A DNA stretch of 46,177 nucleotides. Source: a virus. Its lineage: Duplodnaviria; Heunggongvirae; Uroviricota; Caudoviricetes. Both the position numbers and the translations under genes were made by a program. The notes under the pieces were generated by a model that did no database searches, was not told where the DNA came from, and saw only the letters and a program-made list of their open reading frames with translations. Positions 634-43,012 of this stretch are shown here, in pieces. Where the stretch lies: IMG/VR virus record IMGVR_UViG_2627853910_000001; one strand, 5' to 3'. The first letter of the stretch is position 1; each line of letters opens with the position of its first letter.

Positions 634-1482
634 TTAATGTTGGAGTGATTTCCAGGTCTTTCTTAACCTGTTATAACGCTGCTCAACGAGGGATCGTAAA
701 TATGCAAGGTCAGCACCTGGATACATGCCATCAGCAAATTCCTGGCTAACCTCTCTAGTGATTTGATGACGAAGTTCGGCCTCTCCCTTTTCCTGAACAA
801 GACGCGCAGCTCTCTCCGCTGCTTTCTGTTTTGCCTTTATCTCTCTGGCCGTCTTCCTCTGACGCCATACATTCTCCATCTGCTCCTGAATAACAATACG
901 CTTATAATCAGCCTCCGTTATCGCTTTTTTAAGCCGTTCGCTATTCTTCGCATTGAAGTAATTAAGTTTCTGGCTAACCGCACGTCTCCATGCTTGTTCA
1001 GTAATACCGACGGTTTCCAGCAGTTGATCACGAATCTCTATTTTCGCTGGCCAATACTGTTTATTCACCCGATCCCAGCGACGTTCATAATCAATAAAAC
1101 CTAACGCTTTCAGTTGCGACAACGCCCTTGTACAGCGTGTTATAGACTTGTTCCCAGCTTCGGATACGGTAGACAGGCCGCAAAAATCAGCCAACGCCTC
1201 AGCACTGGCCAGAACCCGCTTAGAAATGATGTTTACATGGTGCAAAATCGCAGCAATCACAGCATTAATCGCCCGACGACGATGCTCGTTTATCCGGCGC
1301 TTCCGCTCTGACGGTTGATTAACGTAGAACGCAACCTCACACGTAAGATCACGACCATTAATGCGCTGTAAAGCATCAGATAACACCAGCGGCAGCTTGT
1401 GCGTATGGTGCTTTGGAGGCTGGAACTCCGGCGACAAATTACAAACGTAAGCTGAACGTAGAGACGGCATTGGTCTATCCAT
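634..1482 (-). CDS. repA: Plasmid replication initiator RepA, IncFII (RepFIIA)-like
   Basis: Translation has blocks typical of IncFII RepA1 as recalled (RRRAINAVIAAIL..., GLSTVSEAGNKSITRCTRALSQLKALGFIDYERRWD); start trimmed to internal MDRPMP (282 aa) from the 337-aa track ORF. Confidence 0.7.
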   Translation of the reverse strand: MDRPMPSLRSAYVCNLSPEFQPPKHHTHKLPLVLSDALQRINGRDLTCEVAFYVNQPSERKRRINEHRRRAINAVIAAILHHVNIISKRVLASAEALADFCGLSTVSEAGNKSITRCTRALSQLKALGFIDYERRWDRVNKQYWPAKIEIRDQLLETVGITEQAWRRAVSQKLNYFNAKNSERLKKAITEADYKRIVIQEQMENVWRQRKTAREIKAKQKAAERAARLVQEKGEAELRHQITREVSQEFADGMYPGADLAYLRSLVEQRYNRLRKTWKSLQH

Positions 1483-1526
1483 ATGTTCGCTCTTGCGTCC
1501 ACGGAAAACCAACGTATAATGGGAGT

Positions 1527-1608
1527 TGTCGAGGCGCCCATGGATTGTTGTTGGTTTTTGTTTCCGTGGATGTCGCAAGAAGCCCGCAGATTTATCTGCG
1601 GGCTTTTT
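1527..1608 (+). ncRNA. Candidate CopA-like antisense RNA in the repA leader
   Basis: Plus-strand TATAAT at 1515-1520 with weak -35 TTGCGT 16 bp upstream; intrinsic terminator at 1581-1608; lies antisense to the leader just upstream of repA, as in IncFII replicons. Confidence 0.3.
1581..1608 (+). terminator. Rho-independent terminator (stem AGCCCGCAGA/TCTGCGGGCT, loop TTTA, T5)
   Basis: 10-bp stem followed by TTTTT on plus strand only. Confidence 0.55.
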
Positions 1609-1652
1609 GTTTCCATATCTGGTCACTTTCCAACCAGACACCCACAATCATA

Positions 1653-1667: not shown

Positions 1668-1797
1668 TTTAAGAGAACTCTACCACAACACTTTCGGTCA
1701 TGCACGAAGTCTCTCACTGATCGAACGATAATCCACCAGTAAAAGGATCTAAATTGGATCTCGTTTTGCGAGCATCATACTACTGGCCTAACTCCAG

Positions 1798-2352
1798 TCA
1801 ATGATTCCCAGCCGGAAACCTGCGGTAAAGCGTGGATAAGGTAACATCGAAGATAATCGCTATCCGCTTACGTGAAACACCATTCGCAATAAGCCTTCCG
1901 ATCTGTTCCCATTGCTCTGGTGCCAATTTTGAGCGGCGTCCTCCTATCCTGCCGTTAGCCCTTGCCACCGCCAATCCTGCACGCGTTCTTTCAATCATAT
2001 TTTCCCGCTCCATCTCTGCGACTGCACTCAGCATCGTGTAGGCAAAGCGGCCAATTGAAGTGCTAATTTTTATCCCTTCCGTAATCGAAATAAACTCAAT
2101 GTTGTTTGATAAAAAATGGTTAAGTAAATCAACAAGATGAATCAGAGAACGCCCCATTCGGTCCAGCTTCCAGACAATAACCGTATCGCCCGGCTGTAAC
2201 ACCTTAAGTAGCTTATCAAGTCCTGGTCGTTTTGATTTAGCACCGGATATTTTATCTTCAAAAATCCGGTCACATCCTAAACTCCTGAGCGCCTCCAGTT
2301 GTAATTCCAAATTCTGGTCAAAAGTTGACACCCTCGCATAACCATATTGCAT
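1798..2352 (-). CDS. Serine recombinase, DNA invertase of Hin/Gin/Pin/Cin family
   Basis: N-terminal YARVSTxDQ catalytic motif, resolvase core, C-terminal HTH; adjacent to gix-like crossover site. Confidence 0.9.
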   Translation of the reverse strand: MQYGYARVSTFDQNLELQLEALRSLGCDRIFEDKISGAKSKRPGLDKLLKVLQPGDTVIVWKLDRMGRSLIHLVDLLNHFLSNNIEFISITEGIKISTSIGRFAYTMLSAVAEMERENMIERTRAGLAVARANGRIGGRRSKLAPEQWEQIGRLIANGVSRKRIAIIFDVTLSTLYRRFPAGNH

Positions 2353-4482: not shown

Positions 4483-6861
4483 TTACACCTGTGCGACGTT
4501 ATACCATGTGCCATTGATGTATTTTTGTATTGGCCTGAAGATGGCTTCATCATCGCCATCTACTTCACCAATGATTCTTAATCCGGTAATTGCGTGTCCG
4601 GCTTTTTCATAACGACCACCACGCGCCATCAATTGAACAACTCGCGTACCCAGGCGAACATCTCTCACATATCTGGAATCAAAATTGCCATAGTTGCCAG
4701 GAATAACTTGCGAGCCACAAAGCCAGTTACCGTTATTGTCCATGTACGCCTGACCATCGGTGCCATTGGCTGTCCTTGAGTTATTAATCATGTAAAAACC
4801 AAACTGGTAGTTACCAAGTCCACCGACAAAAAATTTGCGTTCTGCATGGTCTTGTCTTAACAAAGCCTGCGCAGAACTTGTTGATACTGCGTTTCTACCA
4901 AAAATGACATTCTGGTTTCGCATATCAATCCATGAGGTTGAGCCACTATTAATAGCAAACCTGTTTGCATACACCCAGGCGTTAGTTGTTATATCTCCTG
5001 TAACATCCAGACCATGCCCCATAGTTATGCGGCCAGTTCTGAGATTAAGCGTAAAGGGACGTAGTGGCCCTATATCACCATTTTCCCCCTCATTCTCTCG
5101 TGTAGGGATGATATGCAGGCATTCTTCAGAACGGCGAAAAATGGCACCAAAAGATGAATTAAATATCCTCAGTGCATTGACTGTCGATATTTTTACTTCA
5201 CTGCTGAAAAGAGCTTTAACAAGAACATACAAAGCATCCCATTTAAGATTCATCAGGTCTTTTGTTGTGGTGCTTTGTTTGCTTCTCCATTTGAAATATT
5301 CATTGCCGTTGTCGCCTGTCTCAAACCACATGTATGAATCAGTGTCACCATCGGCATCATTTTTAAATCCAATCTTCGCCCAGTCAGTATTTCGAATCCA
5401 GGCAAGGATTGAGTCATTTTCAAAAGTAAGCCCACCGGACAAAGTATCGCCATTTTTTTGCACGGCGTTACCAGCCCTGTTTACCGTTTCCTGTAAACCG
5501 AGGTATTCGATAACGGCAGCAACGGTCGATTTCGCAAGAATATCCCGCCCGACTTTTGTCAGGGTTGCCAGGCTGGCGACATCATTCCCCGTAAAATACG
5601 GAAACTTGTCTGCCGCAGTAGCAAGCCCGGCCAGCGCCGTCAGGGTGGCATCTTTCGGTTGCTTACCCGCAAGCGCGTTAGTCATGGTGGTCGCAAAATT
5701 CGGGTCGTTGCCCAACGCCGCAGCCAGCTCGTTCAGCGTATTCAGTGCGTCAGGCGACGAGTCCACGAGGGCAGCGATCGCAGCCATAACATAAGCCGTG
5801 CTTGCGATCTGAGTATTGTTAGTACCTTTTGGCGCAGTTGGTGTTGTTGGCGTTCCGGTCAGCGCAGGACTGTTTAAGGGCGCTTTCTTGTTCGTTTCAT
5901 CCATTACCACCTTTACCGCTTTCGATGTCGCGGCCAGTGTTTCAGACGTGCTGTTGGTTGCACTACTGAGCTGAGTGATTCCCCTTACTGTCAGTGAAGC
6001 TACAGGCACATTTGTTATCTGCTCCCACGAATGCGTGTGATTGGACGGAGCCTTTCCGGCCGCAAGATCATACGCTGCCTTAACAGCCTTTGGTGTTGCG
6101 GCCAGCGTTTCCGAATCACTGTTAGTGGCGCTACTGAGCTGAACAATCCCTTTTCGCGCCGTGGTAGCGTCCTGTGCGGTGTATTTGCCATTAGCCAGGT
6201 CATATGCTGCCTTAACAGCCTTAGGCGTCGCAGCAAGCGTTTCAGACGAGCTATTGGTGGCGCTGCTAAGTTGAACAAAGCCTTTTGAGGTTAAAGTTGC
6301 ATCGGGATGATTACGTGATTGCTCATGTTTCACAATGGCTTGCTTAAGCCGCTTTGCTGAAACAGCAAGGGAATCATCTGTACCTGCATCAATTTCTTGT
6401 TCATTAGCAAACCTTGCCACCCCAACAACAGTTTCGGTCGCGGGAGGATTAATAAACTCAATATCACCAAATGTAATATTTTTAGTATCAAGAGTTTTAA
6501 TTGCTATATCACTTGATATTAAAGCGATAGTAGATGATGCTTTATTTATTATTGCTTGTTCTTGTGAGTATACAGCAAACAACGTACCCTTATTCGTATA
6601 CAATCCTATTGTATGGACAACATACTCATCTTTACTATCATCCTTCGCTGTTACATGAATTGTATCAGGGGAAACAACTTTGCCACCTATTGTGGTAAGT
6701 CGTTTTATTTCGTTTGTTATATTTGTTTGTGAAGTTGACGTGACATAATATCTACTACCTAAACCAACAGAAACAATCTCAACTTTATTTGTTCCTGTTT
6801 TGTTGGCATTAACCAGCTCCTGACGCCCGGCGTCAGTCATCGTAAATAATAATTTACTCAC
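4483..6861 (-). CDS. Tail fibre protein (constant N-terminal part plus invertible C-terminal part)
   Basis: 792 aa; tandem ~40-aa fibre repeats (GxVQLSSATNSxSETLAATPKAVKAAYDLA); crossover site inside the gene. Confidence 0.85.
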   Translation of the reverse strand: MSKLLFTMTDAGRQELVNANKTGTNKVEIVSVGLGSRYYVTSTSQTNITNEIKRLTTIGGKVVSPDTIHVTAKDDSKDEYVVHTIGLYTNKGTLFAVYSQEQAIINKASSTIALISSDIAIKTLDTKNITFGDIEFINPPATETVVGVARFANEQEIDAGTDDSLAVSAKRLKQAIVKHEQSRNHPDATLTSKGFVQLSSATNSSSETLAATPKAVKAAYDLANGKYTAQDATTARKGIVQLSSATNSDSETLAATPKAVKAAYDLAAGKAPSNHTHSWEQITNVPVASLTVRGITQLSSATNSTSETLAATSKAVKVVMDETNKKAPLNSPALTGTPTTPTAPKGTNNTQIASTAYVMAAIAALVDSSPDALNTLNELAAALGNDPNFATTMTNALAGKQPKDATLTALAGLATAADKFPYFTGNDVASLATLTKVGRDILAKSTVAAVIEYLGLQETVNRAGNAVQKNGDTLSGGLTFENDSILAWIRNTDWAKIGFKNDADGDTDSYMWFETGDNGNEYFKWRSKQSTTTKDLMNLKWDALYVLVKALFSSEVKISTVNALRIFNSSFGAIFRRSEECLHIIPTRENEGENGDIGPLRPFTLNLRTGRITMGHGLDVTGDITTNAWVYANRFAINSGSTSWIDMRNQNVIFGRNAVSTSSAQALLRQDHAERKFFVGGLGNYQFGFYMINNSRTANGTDGQAYMDNNGNWLCGSQVIPGNYGNFDSRYVRDVRLGTRVVQLMARGGRYEKAGHAITGLRIIGEVDGDDEAIFRPIQKYINGTWYNVAQV
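5480..5513. repeat. gix/hix-like crossover site, right boundary, inside tail-fibre gene
   Basis: TTCCTGTAAACCGAGGTATTCGATAA, about 23/26 to the Gin gix consensus as recalled. Confidence 0.7.
5905..6300. repeat. Three tandem ~120-bp repeats inside the tail-fibre gene
   Basis: Repeated DNA blocks (TTAACAGCCTTxGGxGTxGCxGCxAGCGTTTCxGA...) encoding the repeated fibre motif. Confidence 0.5.
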
Positions 6862-25285: not shown

Positions 25286-25842
25286 TTTTTAACCGCCATA
25301 ACACAACAGGTTAAAGAAAACTGTTTAACTTATTGATACTAAAAGAGAAAAATGACGATCTTTTTACTCATAAAAAATCACACAAACCAGCATAATTATA
25401 TGATTTTATTAAGTTTTTATAAGTAAAAAGGATCTTGCGATAGTGTTTTGGTTAAAAGATTGGATGTATTTGCATGATTTATAACGATTTTTATCAGAAC
25501 AACATCACATTGGTTAAAGATCTGCGCGTATCTTGATGATCTAAAAGAAAATTTTCTACTTTCTTTTTACCAGCACAAATACAGCAAAAAATCACGTTTT
25601 CCCGATATTTTTCAATGAGATGAGTAAATTTCTTTTACCGCAACTTTTAACCTAACTTTTTTCACGTTTAGCTAGCCGAACATCGGGGTTCGAATGACCC
25701 GCATCCAACGCTTTTGGCCAGAAGGACCCAATTCTGCCGGACGATGAAACGATGCTCGTGCCCACCCACAGACAGCCAGAGAGCGACGCTACAGAACACA
25801 GTGAATACACCTTGCATAACAACACCATCAACCACACGATGA
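25286..25842. other. AT-rich 557-bp non-coding region upstream of packaging genes
   Basis: No ORF of 60 aa or more on the minus strand; short repeats (TGGTTAAAGAT) and a few GATC sites. Confidence 0.4.
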
Positions 25843-27958: not shown

Positions 27959-28575
27959 ACCTCCCCAGCCAGCAATGCGGATACAAATCCGATATAGCTG
28001 CCATTATCATCAACATAACGAGACACCGCGCAGTCAAAACGATCCGCTTCCTCATCCGTTGCTGGGATTTTATGACCTCCAAATGACAGGTACTGAACTT
28101 TTACGCCTGATTTGGCCTCATCCTTCTCAAATGGGATATCCATACCCTCTGTGTCATCGTAGACTGCCGCACTCAATAAGTTATCCAGTTCGCGCTGAGT
28201 AAAACCAATTGAGTCCAGAGCAAAATCATCGGCCGCAAGATCTGCAAGCTCCGCGCTTAACAGCTCTTCATCCCAACCAGCATTCAGCGGAATACGGTTG
28301 TCGGCCAGACGATATGCCTTCTTCTGATTCTCCGTTAGCCCTTCCAGAACAATGCAGGGAACATCATCCATCCCCAACTGAGTGGCCGCAGCAATTCGAC
28401 CATGACCAGCAATTACAACGTTGTTCTCGTCTATCAGGATCGGATTAGTCCATCCGTACTCCTGTATGCTGGCAACAATCTGATCTACCTGCTCCACGGA
28501 GTGTGTGCGAGCGTTCTTTTCATAACCAATCAACACAGAAAGTGGTAAAGAAACCACATTAAGATGTTTTGTCAT
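27952..28575 (-). CDS. ParB/Srx-fold (ParB-like nuclease domain) protein, copy 2
   Basis: Paralogue of 24695-25285 (IAGHGR, NQKKAYRLADN, LNAGWD); overlaps downstream gene start. Confidence 0.6.
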   Translation of the reverse strand: MTKHLNVVSLPLSVLIGYEKNARTHSVEQVDQIVASIQEYGWTNPILIDENNVVIAGHGRIAAATQLGMDDVPCIVLEGLTENQKKAYRLADNRIPLNAGWDEELLSAELADLAADDFALDSIGFTQRELDNLLSAAVYDDTEGMDIPFEKDEAKSGVKVQYLSFGGHKIPATDEEADRFDCAVSRYVDDNGSYIGFVSALLAGEVC

Positions 28576-28810: not shown

Positions 28811-28840
28811 AAAAAACAAAACCACCCGCAGGTGGTTTTA
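28811..28840 (-). terminator. Terminator hairpin ACCACC-CGCA-GGTGGT with A-run/T-run flanks
   Basis: 6-bp GC-rich stem flanked by A6 and T4; follows the minus-strand gene ending at 28868. Confidence 0.5.
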
Positions 28841-28867
28841 TAAATAAATAGCAAACAGGTATCTGCA

Positions 28868-31725: not shown

Positions 31726-31801
31726 TGGTGGCCCCTACCGGATTTGAACCGATGACCGTGCGATTATGAGTCGCCTGCTCTAACCACTGAGCTAAGGGGC
31801 C
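31726..31801 (-). tRNA. tRNA with CAU anticodon (Ile2/lysidine-type or Met)
   Basis: 76-nt cloverleaf GGCCCCTTAGCTCAGTGGTTAGAGCAGGCGACTCATAATCGCACGGTCATCGGTTCAAATCCGGTAGGGGCCACCA; acceptor and D-arm identical to E. coli ileX-type tRNA as recalled; encoded CCA. Confidence 0.85.
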
Positions 31802-33625: not shown

Positions 33626-34012
33626 ATAAAGCAACAAATTACGCGGTAATCGCTTAACGCAGTTTTACTACGTTAAATGAAACACTACACCCAGTTACCA
33701 CCTAAAACAAGGTTTTCCCATAAAAAAACCTTCATATTGTGGTTAATCGATCAATAAAAAAACAATACTTAACTTTTGACCAACCGAACATCCCGACCAG
33801 GACTTCCATAATATTCGCCGATATGCCACTGCTTAAGTTGAGTAATCTTCTCCAACTTAACGCCCATAGAGTCCAGTTTCTGCCATGTTTTCGGTTGTAT
33901 GTGCTTCATTATGTTTCTTTCGGACCAACACACCAGGTTGTCGGCGTTTCGCGCAACTTCACTCTTTTCTCACCATCATTGGTAATGATTATTCCGGTAT
34001 GGGTTTTGATGC

Positions 34013-36956: not shown

Positions 36957-37468
36957 TGATGGCCCCCGTCATTTCTGGTGCTTTTCACCGTGCGGCTTCT
37001 TAAAAACCTGCCATCACGAACAACAGACACTTCTCGTTTACCCAACCTCATTTCACGGCGGTAACATTCAGAAAATGCCTCGTCCGGCATCATATAAATG
37101 CGACGCTTCGCCTCCGTATCCAGAAGGGAACGGCTTGGGGTTACATATAAAAACGACTCATCAATAGGGACAAAACCACGAGCAAGAATTGCTGGCAGAA
37201 TGCCAGGAAGAACGCAGAAAACAGCTCCACGATGCAGCAACATCTGGTACTCCATGACCTCCGTTATCCCCGTGACTACTGTTACGGTGTCACGTCTGTT
37301 ACGGCTGGCAACCAGTCGCTGCACACGTCCAATTTTCTGATCTACAGATAGATGTTTGCTATCGTTATCAATATGATCGATAACAAATCCTTTAATCGTT
37401 TGATCAAGGTAGTGCACCACCTGCGATTGAATCTGGTGATTATCACCAAAGAAGGCCAGAATCATCAT
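36953..37468 (-). CDS. Hypothetical early protein
   Basis: 171-aa ORF in early operon. Confidence 0.35.
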   Translation of the reverse strand: MMILAFFGDNHQIQSQVVHYLDQTIKGFVIDHIDNDSKHLSVDQKIGRVQRLVASRNRRDTVTVVTGITEVMEYQMLLHRGAVFCVLPGILPAILARGFVPIDESFLYVTPSRSLLDTEAKRRIYMMPDEAFSECYRREMRLGKREVSVVRDGRFLRSRTVKSTRNDGGHQ

Positions 37469-37959
37469 TCCTCAAGCCTCCCAAGTGCTGAACGCCGGGC
37501 GTTGCTAATCTCCTTATGAATCAGCTCGATATCGCTGGAATCTTTATTCTTAAGCTCCAGCACGGTAATCGCATCACGAACCTCTGAAACGGTTACGTGT
37601 GAGTGTTTCCAGCGAGCAATGAATCGCGGACCGCGTAGATTGCAACGCTCCGCAGGCATCCCCAGCTCAGAGAAAACCGCTTTCAGCCTTGATAAGCAGT
37701 TAACAGGGAGATTCCCTTTGATCTTGTTCTGCCGAACCGATGTGCCATCGCTACGCTGGCGCTGACGTTCGGCAAAATCTGCCGCCCATTGCTGGACGTT
37801 AATCCGGCCTTCCGAATACGCCACCAGCAGCGTCAGGTTATCCGCACGAGGGAATCTCTCGAAGCGATACCAGGCACCAATCAGTGATGACGTAAAGCCA
37901 AACTTTCTGGCAACACCAATTTGGCCTCCATTTTCGTCAACCCACTCCTGAAAGGTCAT
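37465..37959 (-). CDS. First early-operon protein, Cro/YdaS-like HTH N-terminus
   Basis: Divergent from CI-like gene across operator region; GGAG RBS. Confidence 0.4.
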   Translation of the reverse strand: MTFQEWVDENGGQIGVARKFGFTSSLIGAWYRFERFPRADNLTLLVAYSEGRINVQQWAADFAERQRQRSDGTSVRQNKIKGNLPVNCLSRLKAVFSELGMPAERCNLRGPRFIARWKHSHVTVSEVRDAITVLELKNKDSSDIELIHKEISNARRSALGRLEE

Positions 37960-37978
37960 TTAACGAACTCCAGTTAAA

Positions 37979-38014
37979 ACCACGATATGTGGTATTAAAA
38001 CCACATATCGTGAG
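37979..38014. promoter_or_regulatory. Two adjacent 15-bp operators (ACCACGATATGTGGT and inverted copy)
   Basis: Same 15-mer in opposite orientations between divergent Cro-like and CI-like genes. Confidence 0.55.
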
Positions 38015-38081
38015 TTTTTCAATGGGCGAAACAAAAAATAACCTTCTATTTGTGGTCCACCTCTCGTCTTACCATGTGAAA

Positions 38082-38096
38082 ACCACTAAATGTGGT
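38082..38096. promoter_or_regulatory. Third operator ACCACTAAATGTGGT adjacent to TATAAAT -10 upstream of CI-like gene
   Basis: Same ACCAC-N5-GTGGT architecture; TATAAAT at 38101-38107. Confidence 0.45.
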
Positions 38097-38133
38097 AATG
38101 TATAAATAACCCACCATTCACGATTGATGAGAC

Positions 38134-38790
38134 ATGAAAAGCAACGACGAGAACATCAAGAAAGAAATAGGTCTGCGCATTCAGACTCTACGGAAACAAT
38201 CCGGCATGACTGCCGGAGATCTCCAGCAAGTCACTGGAATAGGCTTAAGCACCTTGCAGAACTATGAGGCCGGATTAAGACAACCATCGATACCTGCCAT
38301 CAAGAAAATCGCGCACGCCCTGAAAGCATCAGCGCCTTATATCGCGTGCTTAACAGATAACCCGTTCCCACCCCAGAATACTAACGCTCCTGTTATTCCT
38401 GGGCTTGTAGCTATAAAAAATGACATAGCATCGCACGCCGGAGAAAAGCCAGTGCTGGCGATAGAACAGGAGATTCTACGAAGCAAGAACATCAACCCAT
38501 CGTCTCTGTCAGTTCTCCAGAGCAACGATGAGTTAATGTCACCAACAATATCCCCTGGCTCCCAAGTCCTGATTAATACAGACGATACAGAGATTCATGA
38601 GGGGATCTATGCCCTTGAAGACAGAAATGGCCTGGTTGTTTTGAGGCACTGTAGAGTCATACCGGGTGACAATGCTGTTATGCTGTCAACCGAAAGGGAT
38701 GCTGAAATGAACACTAAGCATCTGAATAACGAGGAATTTAAGCGTTATAAAGTTCTTGGCCGCGTAGTTAGTGTTGTCAACTGGTTATGA
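38134..38790 (+). CDS. CI/LexA-like repressor (N-terminal HTH, C-terminal S24 peptidase-like domain)
   Basis: HTH (MTAGDLQQVTGIGLSTLQNYEAG) plus C-terminal autocleavage-like domain. Confidence 0.75.
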   Translation: MKSNDENIKKEIGLRIQTLRKQSGMTAGDLQQVTGIGLSTLQNYEAGLRQPSIPAIKKIAHALKASAPYIACLTDNPFPPQNTNAPVIPGLVAIKNDIASHAGEKPVLAIEQEILRSKNINPSSLSVLQSNDELMSPTISPGSQVLINTDDTEIHEGIYALEDRNGLVVLRHCRVIPGDNAVMLSTERDAEMNTKHLNNEEFKRYKVLGRVVSVVNWL

Positions 38791-38832
38791 TACACAGCAC
38801 GGCGAAAGCCGTGCATTTCTACGCTCAAAAAA

Positions 38833-38847
38833 ACCACATTATGTGGT
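38833..38847. promoter_or_regulatory. Perfect operator palindrome ACCACATTATGTGGT overlapping TTGACA upstream of 38883 gene
   Basis: Palindrome ends inside the TTGACA hexamer at 38849-38854. Confidence 0.45.
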
Positions 38848-38882
38848 TTTGACAACATGTAAAAGTATAAAAGAGGCTACGC

Positions 38883-39257
38883 ATGGAATTACATACAGCC
38901 AATAAAAATGAAACTCTGATCACTGCTGGAATCGAAATCCAAGCGTTGAACATAGCGATTGAGTGTATGTTATGCCAAATCATTGATAATGAGAAAGATA
39001 TCGACTGGATAGAATCTATCCTTCATCTGGCATCAGAACAAAAAGTCTGCCTCAAAACGGCCTTGCAATACGATGTGCCAGCGGTATCGAAGCTGTGCCA
39101 GCCATTGATGGCATATAACAGGGCTATTATTTCTGTATGCCTCATGATTCTTGATGAAAACACTCCTCTTAGCGACCGCTCAGAAGCTGCTCTAACCCTC
39201 TCACGTAAACAGCGACAGCTAGCAAATCAACTGATATCAACGATAGCTGACCTCTGA
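38883..39257 (+). CDS. Hypothetical protein downstream of repressor
   Basis: 124-aa ORF with AAGAGG RBS. Confidence 0.4.
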   Translation: MELHTANKNETLITAGIEIQALNIAIECMLCQIIDNEKDIDWIESILHLASEQKVCLKTALQYDVPAVSKLCQPLMAYNRAIISVCLMILDENTPLSDRSEAALTLSRKQRQLANQLISTIADL

Positions 39258-39283
39258 CTGCAAGCGGGCTAACGCCCGCTTAT

Positions 39284-39392
39284 ATGATTATAGATTTATA
39301 TAATTATATAAAACGCTTTCCATCCGCCAAAAAGTTGGTTATGCTTACCTCGTTCTATAAATATAGATTTATAGAATTATATAACCAAACAC
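39284..39392 (+). promoter_or_regulatory. AT-rich iterons upstream of parA (candidate centromere/operator)
   Basis: ATTATAGATTTATATA at 39287-39302 and variant at 39362-39377. Confidence 0.45.
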
Positions 39393-39407: not shown

Positions 39408-40061
39408 ATGACTATCTCTGTAGGTATTTTCAACGGAAAAGGCGGCGTAACCAAATCAACAATTGCCCGTGCTTTAGCAGTTGCTTATGCAAAGGCTGGC
39501 TGGAATGTATGCCTGATCGATATGGATGTGCTTAACGGAACGGTAACGCGTTGGGTACAACGCAGAATGGCCAACAATATCGAACCAGCAATCGCGGCGC
39601 AGCCGTGCGGCACACCATCACAAGTCCAGAAAATCATCGAATCAGAAGTATACGACCTGGTTATCGTTGATGGCGGTGCCTACGCATCTGAATCAGTACC
39701 GAAGCTATCTGAATTTCTGGATATGGTTATTTTGCCAACCCGATTCTCTACCGATGACCTGGAAACCACCGTTAACACTGCTCACGGCATCGTTAAAAAG
39801 GGTGTGCCAATCAAGAAAATTTGCATGGTGTTTTCCGGCGCGGCTGAAAATGAAGCTGACTATATTGAAGCCCAAGAGTACCTGGCTAATACGCCATACT
39901 TTGTTGTCGATAAGTACATTCCCCACAAGCCAGCTCTGAGCAAAGCTCAGGATAAGGGCTTAAGCCTCATTGAATGCTCATACGTTGCGCCACGCAAAAA
40001 GGCAGACGACGTTATTCAGGGGATTATCAACCAGCTTGAGGCTCTGACTACTGCCGCGTAA
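39408..40061 (+). CDS. parA: ParA-family partition ATPase
   Basis: Deviant Walker A GKGGVTKST; start set at ATG with GGAG RBS (track ORF begins 39393). Confidence 0.8.
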   Translation: MTISVGIFNGKGGVTKSTIARALAVAYAKAGWNVCLIDMDVLNGTVTRWVQRRMANNIEPAIAAQPCGTPSQVQKIIESEVYDLVIVDGGAYASESVPKLSEFLDMVILPTRFSTDDLETTVNTAHGIVKKGVPIKKICMVFSGAAENEADYIEAQEYLANTPYFVVDKYIPHKPALSKAQDKGLSLIECSYVAPRKKADDVIQGIINQLEALTTAA

Positions 40062-40104
40062 TATATAATTATAGTTTTATAGATTTATATAAGAGGGGAT
40101 ACAC

Positions 40105-40353
40105 ATGGCCGCACCATCAAAACCACCAAAGAAGAACAGCAAAGGCGTACCGCCATCGATCGAACAACCGCAGGTTTTCGACCCGACTGAAACGCCAACC
40201 AGAACCAAATCAGGTGGGGCACAAATGGCGTTTAACGTCGACCCTGAATTTAAACGCGAGTACAAAACGTTCGCCAGTTCAATGGATATGTCATTGAAAG
40301 AAGTGCTGACAAAATCTTTTGAGTTACTCAAGGCTCAATACAACCAGAAGTAA
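40105..40353 (+). CDS. Small partition partner, ParG/RHH-like centromere-binding protein candidate
   Basis: 82 aa directly after parA; disordered basic N-terminus then helical C-terminus; iteron TATAGATTTATATA immediately upstream. Confidence 0.5.
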   Translation: MAAPSKPPKKNSKGVPPSIEQPQVFDPTETPTRTKSGGAQMAFNVDPEFKREYKTFASSMDMSLKEVLTKSFELLKAQYNQK

Positions 40354-40565: not shown

Positions 40566-40750
40566 ATGTAGCCATAAAAAAGGCGGGCAACCAACCCGCC
40601 TCATTAGAGGTCAACGTCTCTTAGAAACCATCAAATTCGTCATACCGCTTTTTCATATCAACCCCGTATTGAAATCGTAACCACATCTTGTGGCTCTTAC
40701 GGTATATAAGCTACTGCAATGGTAAACAGCTATCAAATGCAGGTTGCAGT

Positions 40751-40772
40751 AAAAAAGGCCCCCGAAGGGGCC
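40751..40772 (-). terminator. Terminator GGCCCC-GAA-GGGGCC with T-run on minus strand
   Basis: GC stem; A6 on plus strand upstream gives T6 after hairpin on minus. Confidence 0.5.
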
Positions 40773-40778
40773 TAATCG

Positions 40779-40901
40779 CTACTTGCTGCTAATGTTTATC
40801 GTCACATTCAGAGCGTTATCAGTAATCTTCCAACCCTCCCCATGTGGCGTAAACAAAGCTCCAGTAACAACGATAAAAATACACATACAGTATTTTTTCA
40901 T
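40779..40901 (-). CDS. Small hydrophobic peptide (40 aa), candidate type I toxin or small membrane protein
   Basis: MKKYCMCIFIVVTGALFTPHGEGWKITDNALNVTINISSK; terminator 7 nt downstream. Confidence 0.35.
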   Translation of the reverse strand: MKKYCMCIFIVVTGALFTPHGEGWKITDNALNVTINISSK

Positions 40902-40966
40902 TGTGTGGCCCTTACAGGCCGTTTCACGGCATCTCCACCGACGAAAATGACGCGAGAGCAAGCACT

Positions 40967-40983
40967 CCGCTTGTGCTTGCGTG
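40967..40983. repeat. 17-nt direct repeat CCGCTTGTGCTTGCGTG (copy 1, in putative 5-prime UTR of small ORF)
   Basis: Identical 17-mer at 41216-41232; copy 1 sits in an 8-bp hairpin. Confidence 0.7.
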
Positions 40984-41149
40984 TACGGCAAGTGGATGAT
41001 CCTTTCCTTAAAGTCGGTGCCCGGGTGCGAATCGGCGAAAAGGCCCCAAGCCATATTACACGTCCTCGCCTTCATAATGAAGGAATAACAATTGCTTTTA
41101 TTACATGTAATTACATCCGAAGAAGTTAAAAAACTTCATTCTGCATGAA

Positions 41150-41316
41150 CTAAGGAACTAAATTTCTTTATATGAATAGTGGACTATTCACCTCAGTTGA
41201 GTAAGAATAGATACGCCGCTTGTGCTTGCGTGGTTGTTTACACAACGACGTTATGCTGAAAGGACCGCGAATCCGATCAGCACAAAAGAACCGTCCTCAA
41301 TAGGGCGGTTTTTTTG
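41150..41316 (+). ncRNA. Candidate divergent antisense sRNA carrying the 17-nt repeat, ends at terminator 41289-41316
   Basis: 17-mer at 41216-41232 on plus strand; intrinsic terminator downstream; promoter not confidently located. Confidence 0.3.
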
Positions 41317-41334
41317 TTTCTGCCTACCAATAAA

Positions 41335-41349
41335 CCCACGCTATGTGGT
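41335..41349. promoter_or_regulatory. CI-operator-like site CCCACGCTATGTGGT upstream of antirepressor operon
   Basis: 14/15 match to operator at 37979-37993. Confidence 0.4.
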
Positions 41350-41552
41350 TGTCTCTGTTAAAATCCCGCCGTATTGACATGAATGCGCCATTGGTGGACA
41401 CTTTCCGAGCCGTAGCAAAATCTACGGCCGGGATTGGCGTCCCGATAATCATCATGGCGCATACCGCGTTAGCGGTTTTTTTATGCGTAAAGCACGGCTA
41501 CACCCGAATTATGGTGGGGCGTGCGGGGGAGCCGTAAGGCTCGCCGGGTATC

Positions 41553-41840
41553 ATGATGACCGGTTACGCCAACCCTGTACGTCTCACCACCTCACTGATT
41601 GGCGTCAGCGGTGGTGATTATTCCAATATCAAAACTGGAACTATCATCATGACAAACTTACCCCATGACTATTACGTCAACCTCGTAAAGATCCTTCTCA
41701 AGAAAGCCTCATACGCCGATAAATTCCGCCTGGCTGAAATCATCGAGCGCGAAGCTATGCGCATCGCCAGCAACGATAACGCTGTTTCTGACGCAAAAAT
41801 CTCCCTCGTAACCAAAGTAGTTATGGGAGGTGCAAAATGA
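41553..41840 (+). CDS. Hypothetical protein translationally coupled to antirepressor (icd-like position)
   Basis: Stop overlaps antirepressor ATG (ATGA). Confidence 0.4.
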   Translation: MMTGYANPVRLTTSLIGVSGGDYSNIKTGTIIMTNLPHDYYVNLVKILLKKASYADKFRLAEIIEREAMRIASNDNAVSDAKISLVTKVVMGGAK

Positions 41841-43012
41841 AAACGCTTCCGACCGTTAACACCCTACAACCTATCCTGCATAACCAGCTCCCCGTTATCA
41901 CTACTGAACTACTGGCAAAGCTATACGGCACAGACGTTGATAACATCAAAAAAAATTACTCACGTAACGCAAACCGCTTTATTGAAGGAAAGCATTTTTT
42001 CAAAGTGGCTGGCGATGAGTTAAAAACTTTGCGAGTGACTTTAAGTCACTCACAAAATTTGCGGGTAGCTTTAAACTACTCACAAAATACCATCTCCCCA
42101 AAAACCCGCACCCTCATCCTCTGGACAGAACGCGGGGCTGCACGTCACGCCAAAATGCTCGAAACCGATCAGGCGTGGGATGTATTCGAACGGCTGGAAG
42201 ACTGCTATTTCAACCAGAACGCGAAAACGGCAGCGACCGTAACCGTCTCGCCAAACAATGCTCGTGAGGTCGTCGATACGCTCAACGCCAAACCGATGTT
42301 TTACATTAAGGTGTGCAATAACGAGCCACTCACAACCTCAGCCGATGTTGCCCAGGCATTCAGCACCACAAACAATTCCATCGTTATGGCCATCGATGCG
42401 TTACGCATTCCTCGCACAGCTGCGGCACGTCATTTCTTTAAAGAGCAACGACCGCTGGAAGGAAGCGACCGCGAAATAACAATCTATCGCATGACAAAAG
42501 ACGGATTTACCTTGCTCATGGAAAGTATCGACGGTCCAGGCGTGAAGGATATCAAGCTGGCCTACATTGAAGCCTTTAACGCTATCAGCAGCGTGTTAAA
42601 AACACAGTACGAGCGCGATCTGGCTAAACGACTGTACCAGGAAAAAACGATTATCCGCGCGGCAACAGAGCATAATCGGCTATTAACGGAACCGAACTAC
42701 AGGAAGGAACTAATCAAGGAGTTTGACAAGGCAACAGGGAAAACCAAAGCGGCGCTAAATCTGCCAGCAATGACTCAGGAAAATGTGATATCAGCCTTAC
42801 TTCTTGATCTACTCAGAAACGCCAGAGCACTTATCAGCTTTGACGAAAACCTGAATCCTCAACTCAAGCTACTACCACCGACAGGCAAAGTAGTCGACCA
42901 GGCTGATCACAACAGCATACTCAGCGTACTGGATGCAAACCTGCCAACCAGGACACTACAGGATCTGATAAAAACATGTGCTGATAAGCTGGCACAGAAA
43001 AGCAGACCATAA
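41837..43012 (+). CDS. Antirepressor (ORF6N/Rha-like domains)
   Basis: N-terminal ITTELLAKLYGTDVDNIKKNYSRNANRF and central PMFYIKVCNNEPLTTSADVAQAF segments typical of phage antirepressors. Confidence 0.7.
   Translation: MKTLPTVNTLQPILHNQLPVITTELLAKLYGTDVDNIKKNYSRNANRFIEGKHFFKVAGDELKTLRVTLSHSQNLRVALNYSQNTISPKTRTLILWTERGAARHAKMLETDQAWDVFERLEDCYFNQNAKTAATVTVSPNNAREVVDTLNAKPMFYIKVCNNEPLTTSADVAQAFSTTNNSIVMAIDALRIPRTAAARHFFKEQRPLEGSDREITIYRMTKDGFTLLMESIDGPGVKDIKLAYIEAFNAISSVLKTQYERDLAKRLYQEKTIIRAATEHNRLLTEPNYRKELIKEFDKATGKTKAALNLPAMTQENVISALLLDLLRNARALISFDENLNPQLKLLPPTGKVVDQADHNSILSVLDANLPTRTLQDLIKTCADKLAQKSRP

Follow-up and report, generated by a model that had tools for sequence, protein, structure and literature searches.

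Predicted CI-like repressor operators at the lysogeny switch, the antirepressor operon, and repA of a myovirus-type phage-plasmid

Does the immunity repressor of a phage-plasmid act only at its own lysis/lysogeny switch, or does it also reach the plasmid replicon? The question is raised by IMG/VR record IMGVR_UViG_2627853910_000001, a Caudoviricetes DNA of 46,177 nucleotides that was analyzed at full length and is called the window below. A preliminary description of this DNA reported one palindromic operator three times between a Cro-like and a CI-like gene, and again upstream of the gene that follows the repressor, of the antirepressor (ant) operon, and of repA. All six sites are present where that description placed them. 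Matrix scores and conservation at orthologous positions support its central proposal that one operator family extends past the intergenic region between cI and cro, so that the repressor regulon would take in plasmid replication as well. We consider it fairly probable that the six ACCAC-N5-GTGGT palindromes are operators of the 218-residue CI-like repressor, and that this protein regulates the switch, the ant operon, and repA in the manner set out below.

Six palindromes form one predicted operator family

The strict pattern of the preliminary description, ACCAC(G/A)-N3-(C/T)GTGGT, fits half of the sites. Those at 1653, 37979, and 38833 match it exactly (three observed in the window versus 0.01 expected), whereas those at 38000, 38082, and 41335 deviate. 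The 38082 site has a T at the G/A position, the 41335 site has one arm mismatch, and the second switch site has two mismatches, both in one arm. This second switch site exists, but the span first given for it, 37998-38014, takes in two flanking A residues, and the palindrome itself is 38000-38014. The relaxed pattern ACCAC-N5-GTGGT with at most one mismatch has nine matches in the window versus 0.70 expected, and three of the nine (6682, 10712, and 28532) are low-scoring matches within coding sequence.

The training set of a 21-bp palindromic weight matrix consisted solely of the O1-O3 operators from the Salmonella, C. amalonaticus, K. aerogenes, and Yokenella elements; the window sites were left out of it to avoid circularity. 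The null model was 300 second-order Markov random windows, in which the top score was 18.2 bits. The scan recovered the six named sites, all above this maximum, and the next match scored 12.3 bits. At a threshold of 14 bits, six sites were observed versus 0.14 expected. The operator consensus is AAAACCAC(G/A)-N3-(C/T)GTGGTTTT with A-rich and T-rich flanks, and by their arms, spacing, and flanks the distal sites cannot be told apart from O1-O3. The sites are as follows.

37979-37993: O1, ACCACGATATGTGGT, just 3' of the leftward-promoter -10, at about -6 to +9; exact match, 29.0 bits, kept in five lineages
38000-38014: O2, ACCACATATCGTGAG, filling the -35/-10 spacer of the leftward promoter; 22.3 bits
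38082-38096: O3, ACCACTAAATGTGGT, whose right arm gives the TG of the extended -10 before cI; 25.7 bits
38833-38847: post-cI operator, ACCACATTATGTGGT, in an O_L-like position between the cI terminator and a 124-residue gene; exact match, 28.1 bits
41335-41349: ant-upstream operator, CCCACGCTATGTGGT, followed after 25 bp by the -35 of the main immI-like promoter; 18.5 bits
1653-1667: repA-upstream operator, ACCACGTTACGTGGT; exact match, 28.2 bits

The switch and post-cI regions were aligned across five lineages represented by elements from E. coli, Salmonella, Citrobacter (C. amalonaticus), Klebsiella (K. aerogenes), and Yokenella. A sixth, distant lineage is a Serratia element with a different virion module and a repressor that is 34-36% identical. 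Serratia apart, the repressors of the elements compared are only 60-66% identical to one another. The arms of O1-O3 and of the post-cI and repA sites are invariant across lineages, and their spacers vary.

Other candidates were rejected. A possible seventh operator at 40680-40694, ACCACATCTTGTGGC, scores 8.3 bits, lies in a lineage-specific insertion, and is absent from a sister E. coli plasmid (L001). The palindrome ACCACC-CGCA-GGTGGT at 28821-28836 has N6 spacing, a GC-rich stem of -15.4 kcal/mol, and A/T runs, which identify it as a bidirectional terminator. The pair at 28532 and 28553 (21 bp apart; 9.6 and 11.9 bits) lies inside the 5' end of a ParB/Srx gene, and its conservation in Salmonella (L002, position 36201) is attributed to coding constraint.

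Two further elements were noted. The sequence CCTTCATATTGTGGT (33729-33743, 12.3 bits) lies in a noncoding gap of the leftward operon and resembles the CCTTC-N5-GTGGT element of the switch described below; it is possibly a weak or half operator. The minus strand at 40700-40735 holds, speculatively, a possible promoter (TTGATA-17-TAGCTT) overlapped by a weak LexA-like box, CTGCAATGGTAAACAG, with one mismatch. This stretch is followed on its 3' side by the 40680 palindrome, which is below threshold, by an open reading frame (ORF) of 11 codons, and by a terminator (40580-40602).

The lysis/lysogeny switch

O1, O2, and O3 all lie within the 174 bp that separate the divergent genes (37959 to 38134). 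The other features of the switch are as follows.

37465-37959, minus strand: cro-position gene, 164 residues, first gene of the leftward operon; N-terminal helix-turn-helix (HTH)-like pattern
37994-38022, minus strand: predicted P_R-like promoter; -35 TTGAAA (38022-38017), 17-bp spacer, -10 TTTAAT (37999-37994)
38042-38056: CCTTC-N5-GTGGT element between O2 and O3; conserved block in the five-lineage alignment
38093-38101, plus strand: predicted extended -10 of the repressor gene, TGgTAATGT, 33 bp before the repressor ATG
38134-38790, plus strand: CI-like repressor, 218 residues; XRE/Cro-C1 HTH N-terminal domain and S24-like C-terminal domain
38797-38814, plus strand: terminator hairpin after the repressor gene, GCACGGC-GAAA-GCCGTGC; hairpin and T-run kept in relatives

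The arrangement is that of a lambda-type switch, with divergent genes and palindromes that overlap both predicted promoters. The switch elements are conserved islands in the five-lineage alignment, and the rest of the intergenic region has diverged. The TTG of the -35 and the whole -10 of the P_R-like promoter are kept in the five lineages; this promoter would serve the cro-position gene and the early-left operon. The extended -10 of cI reads TGGTAA[T/A/G]GT in all five. The promoter-distal arm of O2 is degenerate (CTCAC/CCCAC) in every lineage, as would be expected of graded operator affinities. With its single consensus arm, the CCTTC-N5-GTGGT element may be a fourth, weak operator.

The preliminary description called the left-hand gene Cro-like. 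Its position and its HTH-like pattern agree with that label, but the protein has no Pfam match, even at E<=10, and its AlphaFold2 model has a helical N terminus and a predicted local distance difference test score of 56, a confidence too low for a structure search. The protein matches PHROG 7452 (unknown function) and is as conserved as the N-terminal domain of the repressor.

In the E. coli lineage only, the O1 and O2 spacers are complementary (GATAT / ATATC) and create a 13-14-bp hairpin at 37976-38017 that was flagged by the terminator scan. Since the other lineages lack this hairpin, it is probably a local duplication or conversion and not a functional stem.

The CI-like repressor

The repressor matches Pfam HTH_3 (E=4.5e-11) and falls over its full length in PHROG 4 (CI repressor; E=9.6e-27). 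Its Peptidase_S24 match is weak (E=0.0018; 18.4 bits versus a curated cut-off of 23.3 bits), and a PDB sequence search returned no match for the C-terminal domain. Among 5.8 billion proteins, CI homologs form only 13 clusters (E. coli, Salmonella, Citrobacter, Klebsiella, and Yokenella), and the helix-turn-helix TGIGLSTLQNYEAGLR is identical in all 10 clusters that were aligned. The recognition helix STLQNYEAG is kept in the Serratia repressor as well. Across genera the N-terminal domain is 79-87% identical, compared to 49-58% for the linker together with the C-terminal domain. The CI homolog clusters, PLSDB, the phage collection, and IMG/VR yielded no family member whose recognition helix differs.

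The repressor was aligned with LexA and lambda CI at only 13-15% identity, using reference sequences that may not be exact. In NDELM, the E (or L) stands opposite the catalytic Ser (LexA GMSM, lambda GNSM), and the position of the general-base Lys is held by an invariant Arg. Because the Ser position reads Glu or Leu and the Lys position reads Arg, the repressor is probably not self-cleaving. A noncatalytic repressor fits induction by the neighboring P1-like C4/icd/ant module. LexA boxes are not enriched in the window, and none lies at the relevant promoters.

The repA site and replication control

The operator that the preliminary description placed upstream of repA is borne out by its exact match, its 28.2-bit score, and its orthologs in relatives. 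The surrounding features are as follows.

634-1647, minus strand: repA, IncFII RepA family (Pfam IncFII_repA, E=1.1e-43)
1515-1612, plus strand: probable antisense RNA of the CopA type against the repA leader; TATAAT at 1515-1520, terminator hairpin and T-run at 1580-1612
1677-1685, minus strand: predicted proximal repA promoter P2, extended -10 TGgTAGAGT, which places the operator at about +4 to +18
1774-1801, minus strand: predicted upstream repA promoter P1, TTGACT, 16-bp spacer, TATGAT; 10/12 matches in the promoter scan

The site (ACCACG-N-GTGGT) occupies the orthologous position in every lineage that has repA in the locus. The Serratia repA position keeps ACCCCGAAATGTGGT with one arm intact. 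The switch operators of the Serratia element read ACTGCAAAATGTGGT and ACTACAAAATGTAGT, and ACCCCGAAATGTGGT agrees with the first of these in its right half. The predicted P2 element is kept as TG[G/A/C]TAGAGT in all six lineages including Serratia. P1 is also conserved (TTGACG-16-TAGAAT in Serratia). P1 and P2 are about 100 nt apart, and the operator lies at about +100 in the P1 transcript. The roughly 100 nt between the predicted promoters hold no ORF for copB and offer too little room for one.

The stretch at 1515-1612 is the most conserved part of the repA region. It has no Rfam family match and is probably a CopA-like copy-control RNA. The repA leader DNA is confined to this phage-plasmid family, and the nearest RepA outside it is 37% identical. 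The palindrome was considered as a general feature of the RepA clade and rejected as such: the leader DNA is family-specific, and the leader of that nearest outside RepA has N8, not N5, between the arms. In the repA leader just 3' of P1, at 1745-1760, the repeat GGATC (with its GATC Dam site) occurs twice at a distance of 11 bp, and paired GATCC repeats occupy this position in all lineages including Serratia.

The antirepressor operon

The ant-upstream site precedes a P1-like immI module, whose features are as follows.

41356-41364, plus strand: predicted extended -10, TGtTAAAAT, with its -35 region inside the ant operator
41374-41402, plus strand: predicted main promoter of the immI-like operon; TTGACA (41374-41379), 17-bp spacer, GACACT; conserved in four lineages
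41396-43012, plus strand: P1-like immI module, from Rfam and Pfam matches
41396-41482, plus strand: c4-a1b1 targets / isrK; isrK 73.2 bits (gathering score 50), c4-a1b1 42 bits (gathering score 46.7, E=6e-9)
41507-41594, plus strand: C4 antisense RNA; Rfam C4, 81 bits (gathering score 45)
41649-41840, plus strand: icd-like gene, 63 residues
41837-43012, plus strand: antirepressor; Pfam ORF6N and Phage_pRha domains

The layout is that of a P1-type immI locus, with a C4 RNA and its a1/b1 targets followed by icd-like and ant genes. The c4-a1b1 match is just below its gathering score and overlaps the isrK match. The main promoter has its predicted start at about 41409, which coincides with the first isrK / c4-a1b1 model position, and the ant-upstream site is centered about 67 bp upstream of this start. 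An ortholog of the site, ACCACAATGCGTGAT, is present in the C. amalonaticus and Yokenella elements at the same distance from the conserved TTGACA. An operator upstream of the antirepressor operon, as the preliminary description claimed, is thus present, but it overlaps only the predicted second promoter and is absent from the Salmonella lineage. At that second promoter, the Citrobacter and Yokenella elements have TGgTAGATT, offset by 2 nt from 41356-41364, amid otherwise unrelated sequence. The frequency of TGNTANNNT in the window is about 1 per 1150 nt per strand.

A P1/P7-type immI module here coexists with a lambda-type switch. A ryfA-family RNA (135.5 bits) lies at 40751-41048 on the minus strand, between the partition locus and the ant operon. 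It contains a 20-nt direct repeat, ACNCCGCTTGTGCTTGCGTG (40964-40983), that recurs at 41213-41232 in a plus-strand unit ending at a terminator (41291-41316). The repeat suggests that the ryfA-family RNA and this unit could be a pair of trans-antisense small RNAs like TimP/TimR.

The post-cI site and the partition region

The post-cI site is present in all five lineages, with spacers ATTAT, GTTTC, GTTAC, GAATC, and GTTTC, and always lies between the conserved cI terminator and the ribosome-binding site of the 124-residue gene (38883-39257, plus strand; own terminator at 39262-39281). The preliminary description had a TTGACA overlapping this site. The hexamer, at 38849-38854, is adjacent to the site and does not overlap it. 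It was rejected as a -35 element: the sole -10-like hexamer is 11 bp off, and the TTGACA is unconserved in relatives. The related claim that the repressor controls the gene after cI is left with a conserved operator that precedes the gene but no convincing promoter there.

The 124-residue protein gives a confident four-helix-bundle model, whose structure matches are only generic or designed bundles. As its gene has its own terminator, parA is outside the reach of the post-cI site. parA also has its own AT-rich repeat arrays, and the post-cI site cannot be said to govern partition. These TATAGATTTATATAA-like arrays flank parA (39280-39392 and 40061-40100), with the 39262-39281 terminator between them and the 124-residue gene. 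The arrays probably serve as the centromere or else as the operator at which the small partition protein (40105-40353) acts.

The element and its relatives

The window is a complete or near-complete phage-plasmid of the myovirus type. Its gene content comprises a block for contractile-tail morphogenesis, genes for lysis, and a long early operon read leftward, along with a partition locus of the ParA type, a toxin-antitoxin pair (RelE/ParE), and the IncFII-family RepA. The leftward operon region also contains a tRNA gene (67 bits), at 31729-31801 on the minus strand. Close relatives are complete circular plasmid records of similar size, from which the window element is taken to be circular as well.

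The immunity region is 99-100% identical to 58 plasmids in PLSDB (46-52 kb, non-mobilizable, almost all Escherichia) and matches three Yersinia pestis phage isolates, vB_YpM_39, 41, and 44, equally well. The quality-control strain E. coli ATCC 25922 harbors a family member as a 48.5-kb plasmid (NZ_CP009073.1). The family is thus common in E. coli and includes infectious Yersinia phages. Beyond the protein clusters described above, PLSDB and the phage collection add just Salmonella relatives and one Serratia relative, the IMG/VR relatives are near-identical loci, and a genome-contig scan with RepA for further relatives returned no match. The order of cro-position gene, cI, 124-residue gene, parA, small partition gene, ant, and repA is the same in all contexts fetched.

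Alternative explanations

Several observations weigh against a six-site repressor regulon. At repA, the TATGAT abutting the site was rejected as a -10 because it is unconserved (TATGAA, TAAGAA, TAAGTA, and TTTGAG in relatives), and the promoter assignment rests on the upstream TGnTAGAGT. Sequence inspection and the five-lineage alignment reveal no credible promoter at the post-cI site. The ant-upstream site lies outside the main promoter core, 25 bp upstream of its -35, and is kept in three of four lineages; it is missing in the Salmonella lineage, where the block 40567-41373 around it is absent from the element. The Cro-like label of the left-hand gene is backed by position and an HTH-like pattern only. 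The recognition helix is the same in every known family member, so there is no covariation with the distal sites to compare. A search of the available literature on regulation of this phage-plasmid family found no paper. The remaining points are the folding of two of the palindromes and a palindrome in a non-phage plasmid, both taken up below.

The distal sites could bind the repressor and yet serve mainly as anchors for long-range cooperativity, through DNA looping with O1-O3. We regard this as unlikely overall, and it applies above all to the post-cI site, which is perfectly conserved although no promoter can be assigned at 38833, and which sits in an O_L-like position across cI, 740-850 bp from the switch. 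Models for such looping are provided by lambda (O_L-O_R) and by phage 186 with its flanking sites, and the place of the ant site outside its main promoter core is compatible with it. The repA site, however, is 9.7 kb distant and lies exactly on the start of a conserved extended -10 promoter, and the equivalent N15 and phiKO2 sites repress repA directly (PMC4997575). It is also improbable that another protein reads the distal palindromes, either the cro-position protein alone or a host factor. Cro and prophage repressor do differ in site preference in phiKO2 and PY54 (PMC4997575), and the cro-position protein is conserved to the same degree as the N-terminal domain of the repressor. Against this, the distal sites share the arms, spacing, and flanks of O1-O3, and the CI-like protein, as the only recognizable palindrome-binding HTH dimer encoded beside the sites, is their simplest reader.

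The repA-leader and post-cI palindromes might instead act as RNA elements, the one a leader stem-loop inherited with the replicon and the other a second, weak cI terminator. The two fold as modest hairpins (-8.4 and -9.3 kcal/mol; z about -2.7 to -2.9) with A-run and T-run flanks, and the non-phage KPC plasmid with the 37%-identical RepA (L032, NZ_CP010379.1) has ACCAC-N8-GTGGT in its repA leader at 25627-25644. That palindrome may be a coincidence or the trace of an ancestral leader element that gave rise to the operator position; a TGnTAG-type motif also lies upstream. RNA function is nevertheless a poor prospect. Compensatory variation is absent, the arms are invariant and the same as those of the switch operators, the spacing is always N5, the fold of the ant site is poor (-4.4 kcal/mol), and the true terminator in the window (28811-28846) differs in being GC-rich with an N4 loop and -15.4 kcal/mol. 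Finally, the distal matches could be chance palindromes in AT-rich intergenic DNA. The coding near-matches at 6682, 10712, and 28532 and the match at 40680 do look like chance, but the excess of sites above 14 bits and the orthologous conservation in up to six lineages effectively refute chance for the distal sites.

Proposed mechanism

We favor the repressor regulon, in which the binding protein, the promoters, and the direction of each regulatory effect are predicted. Repressor dimers would bind the six palindromes, at least some of which are probably read by the cro-position protein as well. Repressor at O1 and O2, in the start region and the spacer of the leftward early promoter, would shut off the lytic operon, and the overlap of O3 with the extended -10 of cI would allow autoregulation or make O3 a Cro target. 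The post-cI site would either control the 124-residue gene or aid repression by looping. At the ant-upstream site the repressor would damp a minor upstream promoter of the C4/icd/ant operon. At the repA site it would cover the start of the proximal repA promoter and damp it, and in the lysogen repA transcription would be held to the level allowed by the upstream promoter and the antisense RNA, giving a low copy number. Ant would inactivate the non-cleavable repressor, and the early operon, ant, and repA would be freed together. Freed ant would provide positive feedback and freed repA a replication burst, the plasmid replicon then also serving lytic replication.

In plasmids R1 and R100, repA is controlled by the CopA antisense RNA and by CopB, a repressor of the proximal repA promoter. 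A more tentative proposal, which we hold as possible but doubtful, is that the phage repressor took over the CopB slot of an IncFII-type replicon, that its six operators then froze its specificity, and that the whole family is one immunity/incompatibility group. One RepA would then serve both low-copy maintenance, from the upstream promoter with the antisense RNA, and lytic runaway replication, from the proximal promoter once Ant had inactivated the repressor. The suggestion of a single immunity group follows from the recognition helix being identical across five genera and nearly so in Serratia. Temperate phages normally diversify immunity fast, and a single cross-genus immunity group would be unusual.

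The six-site regulon offers a concrete wiring diagram in which lysogeny, antirepressor-driven induction, and plasmid copy number would be coupled. The coupling to copy number bears on the dosage of any cargo genes carried. Government of repA and the antirepressor operon by an immunity repressor is already established in N15/phiKO2 and P1; if confirmed, the present regulon would extend known biology, not change it.

Comparison with known systems

The closest functional parallel is the N15 group. Like N15, phiKO2, and PY54, the element pairs a separate antirepressor locus with a lambda-like CI/Cro-type switch, in which three operators lie between divergent genes. Like N15 and phiKO2, it has a predicted repressor site at the repA promoter that would tie copy number to the immunity repressor. 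The CB repressor of N15/phiKO2 binds three O_R and two O_L operators, the O_L operators overlap the repA promoter, and copy number is lowered; CB of N15 and phiKO2 is also without the LexA-type cleavage residues (PMC4997575). The differences are in the replicon and the operators. The N15 group is linear with telomeres, whereas the present element is circular by inference, its relatives being circular with no protelomerase annotated. Its RepA is IncFII-type with a probable antisense RNA, not N15 RepA, and 9.7 kb lie between repA and the switch, which are neighbors in the N15 group. Its operators are 15-bp ACCAC-N5-GTGGT palindromes and not of the 16-bp TA-N10-TA type, and it has an extra operator at the antirepressor operon. 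The element would work like N15 at the level of repA control but stands outside the N15 group.

P1 is likewise a plasmid prophage with dispersed operators for its primary repressor and a C4-led antirepressor operon with a1/b1 targets and an icd-like gene. In P1, one of the two tandem immI promoters has a C1 operator (Op51), and C1 controls the lytic replicon (repL), not plasmid repA. The repressor here has an XRE-type HTH and 15-bp palindromes, whereas P1 C1 is an unrelated protein. P1 C1 operators are asymmetric, 17 bp long, with the consensus ATTGCTCTAATAAATTT, and 22 of them are dispersed over the genome (PMC8546580), compared to only six sites here. The element belongs to neither the N15 nor the P1 group: its IncFII-type RepA and circular relatives set it apart from N15, and its XRE HTH and palindromic operators set its repressor apart from C1.

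With R1 and R100 the element shares an IncFII RepA, predicted tandem repA promoters, a putative antisense-RNA-like unit, and a repressor-type site on the proximal promoter. It differs in having no copB between the promoters, where the leader is about 100 nt, in lacking an Rfam CopA match, and in that the site matches the phage operator. About 0.75 kb separates the post-cI site, which lies 3' of the repressor gene, from the switch. The topology is that of lambda O_L and resembles that of the phage 186 sites, but here there is a single site with no recognizable P_L-like promoter. The Ser/Lys dyad that supports RecA-stimulated self-cleavage of lambda CI is not found in the repressor in the 13-15% identity alignment. 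As read from sequence, the element appears to combine a switch in the style of lambda and N15, an antirepressor module like that of P1, and a replicon of the IncFII kind with a phage operator at the CopB position.

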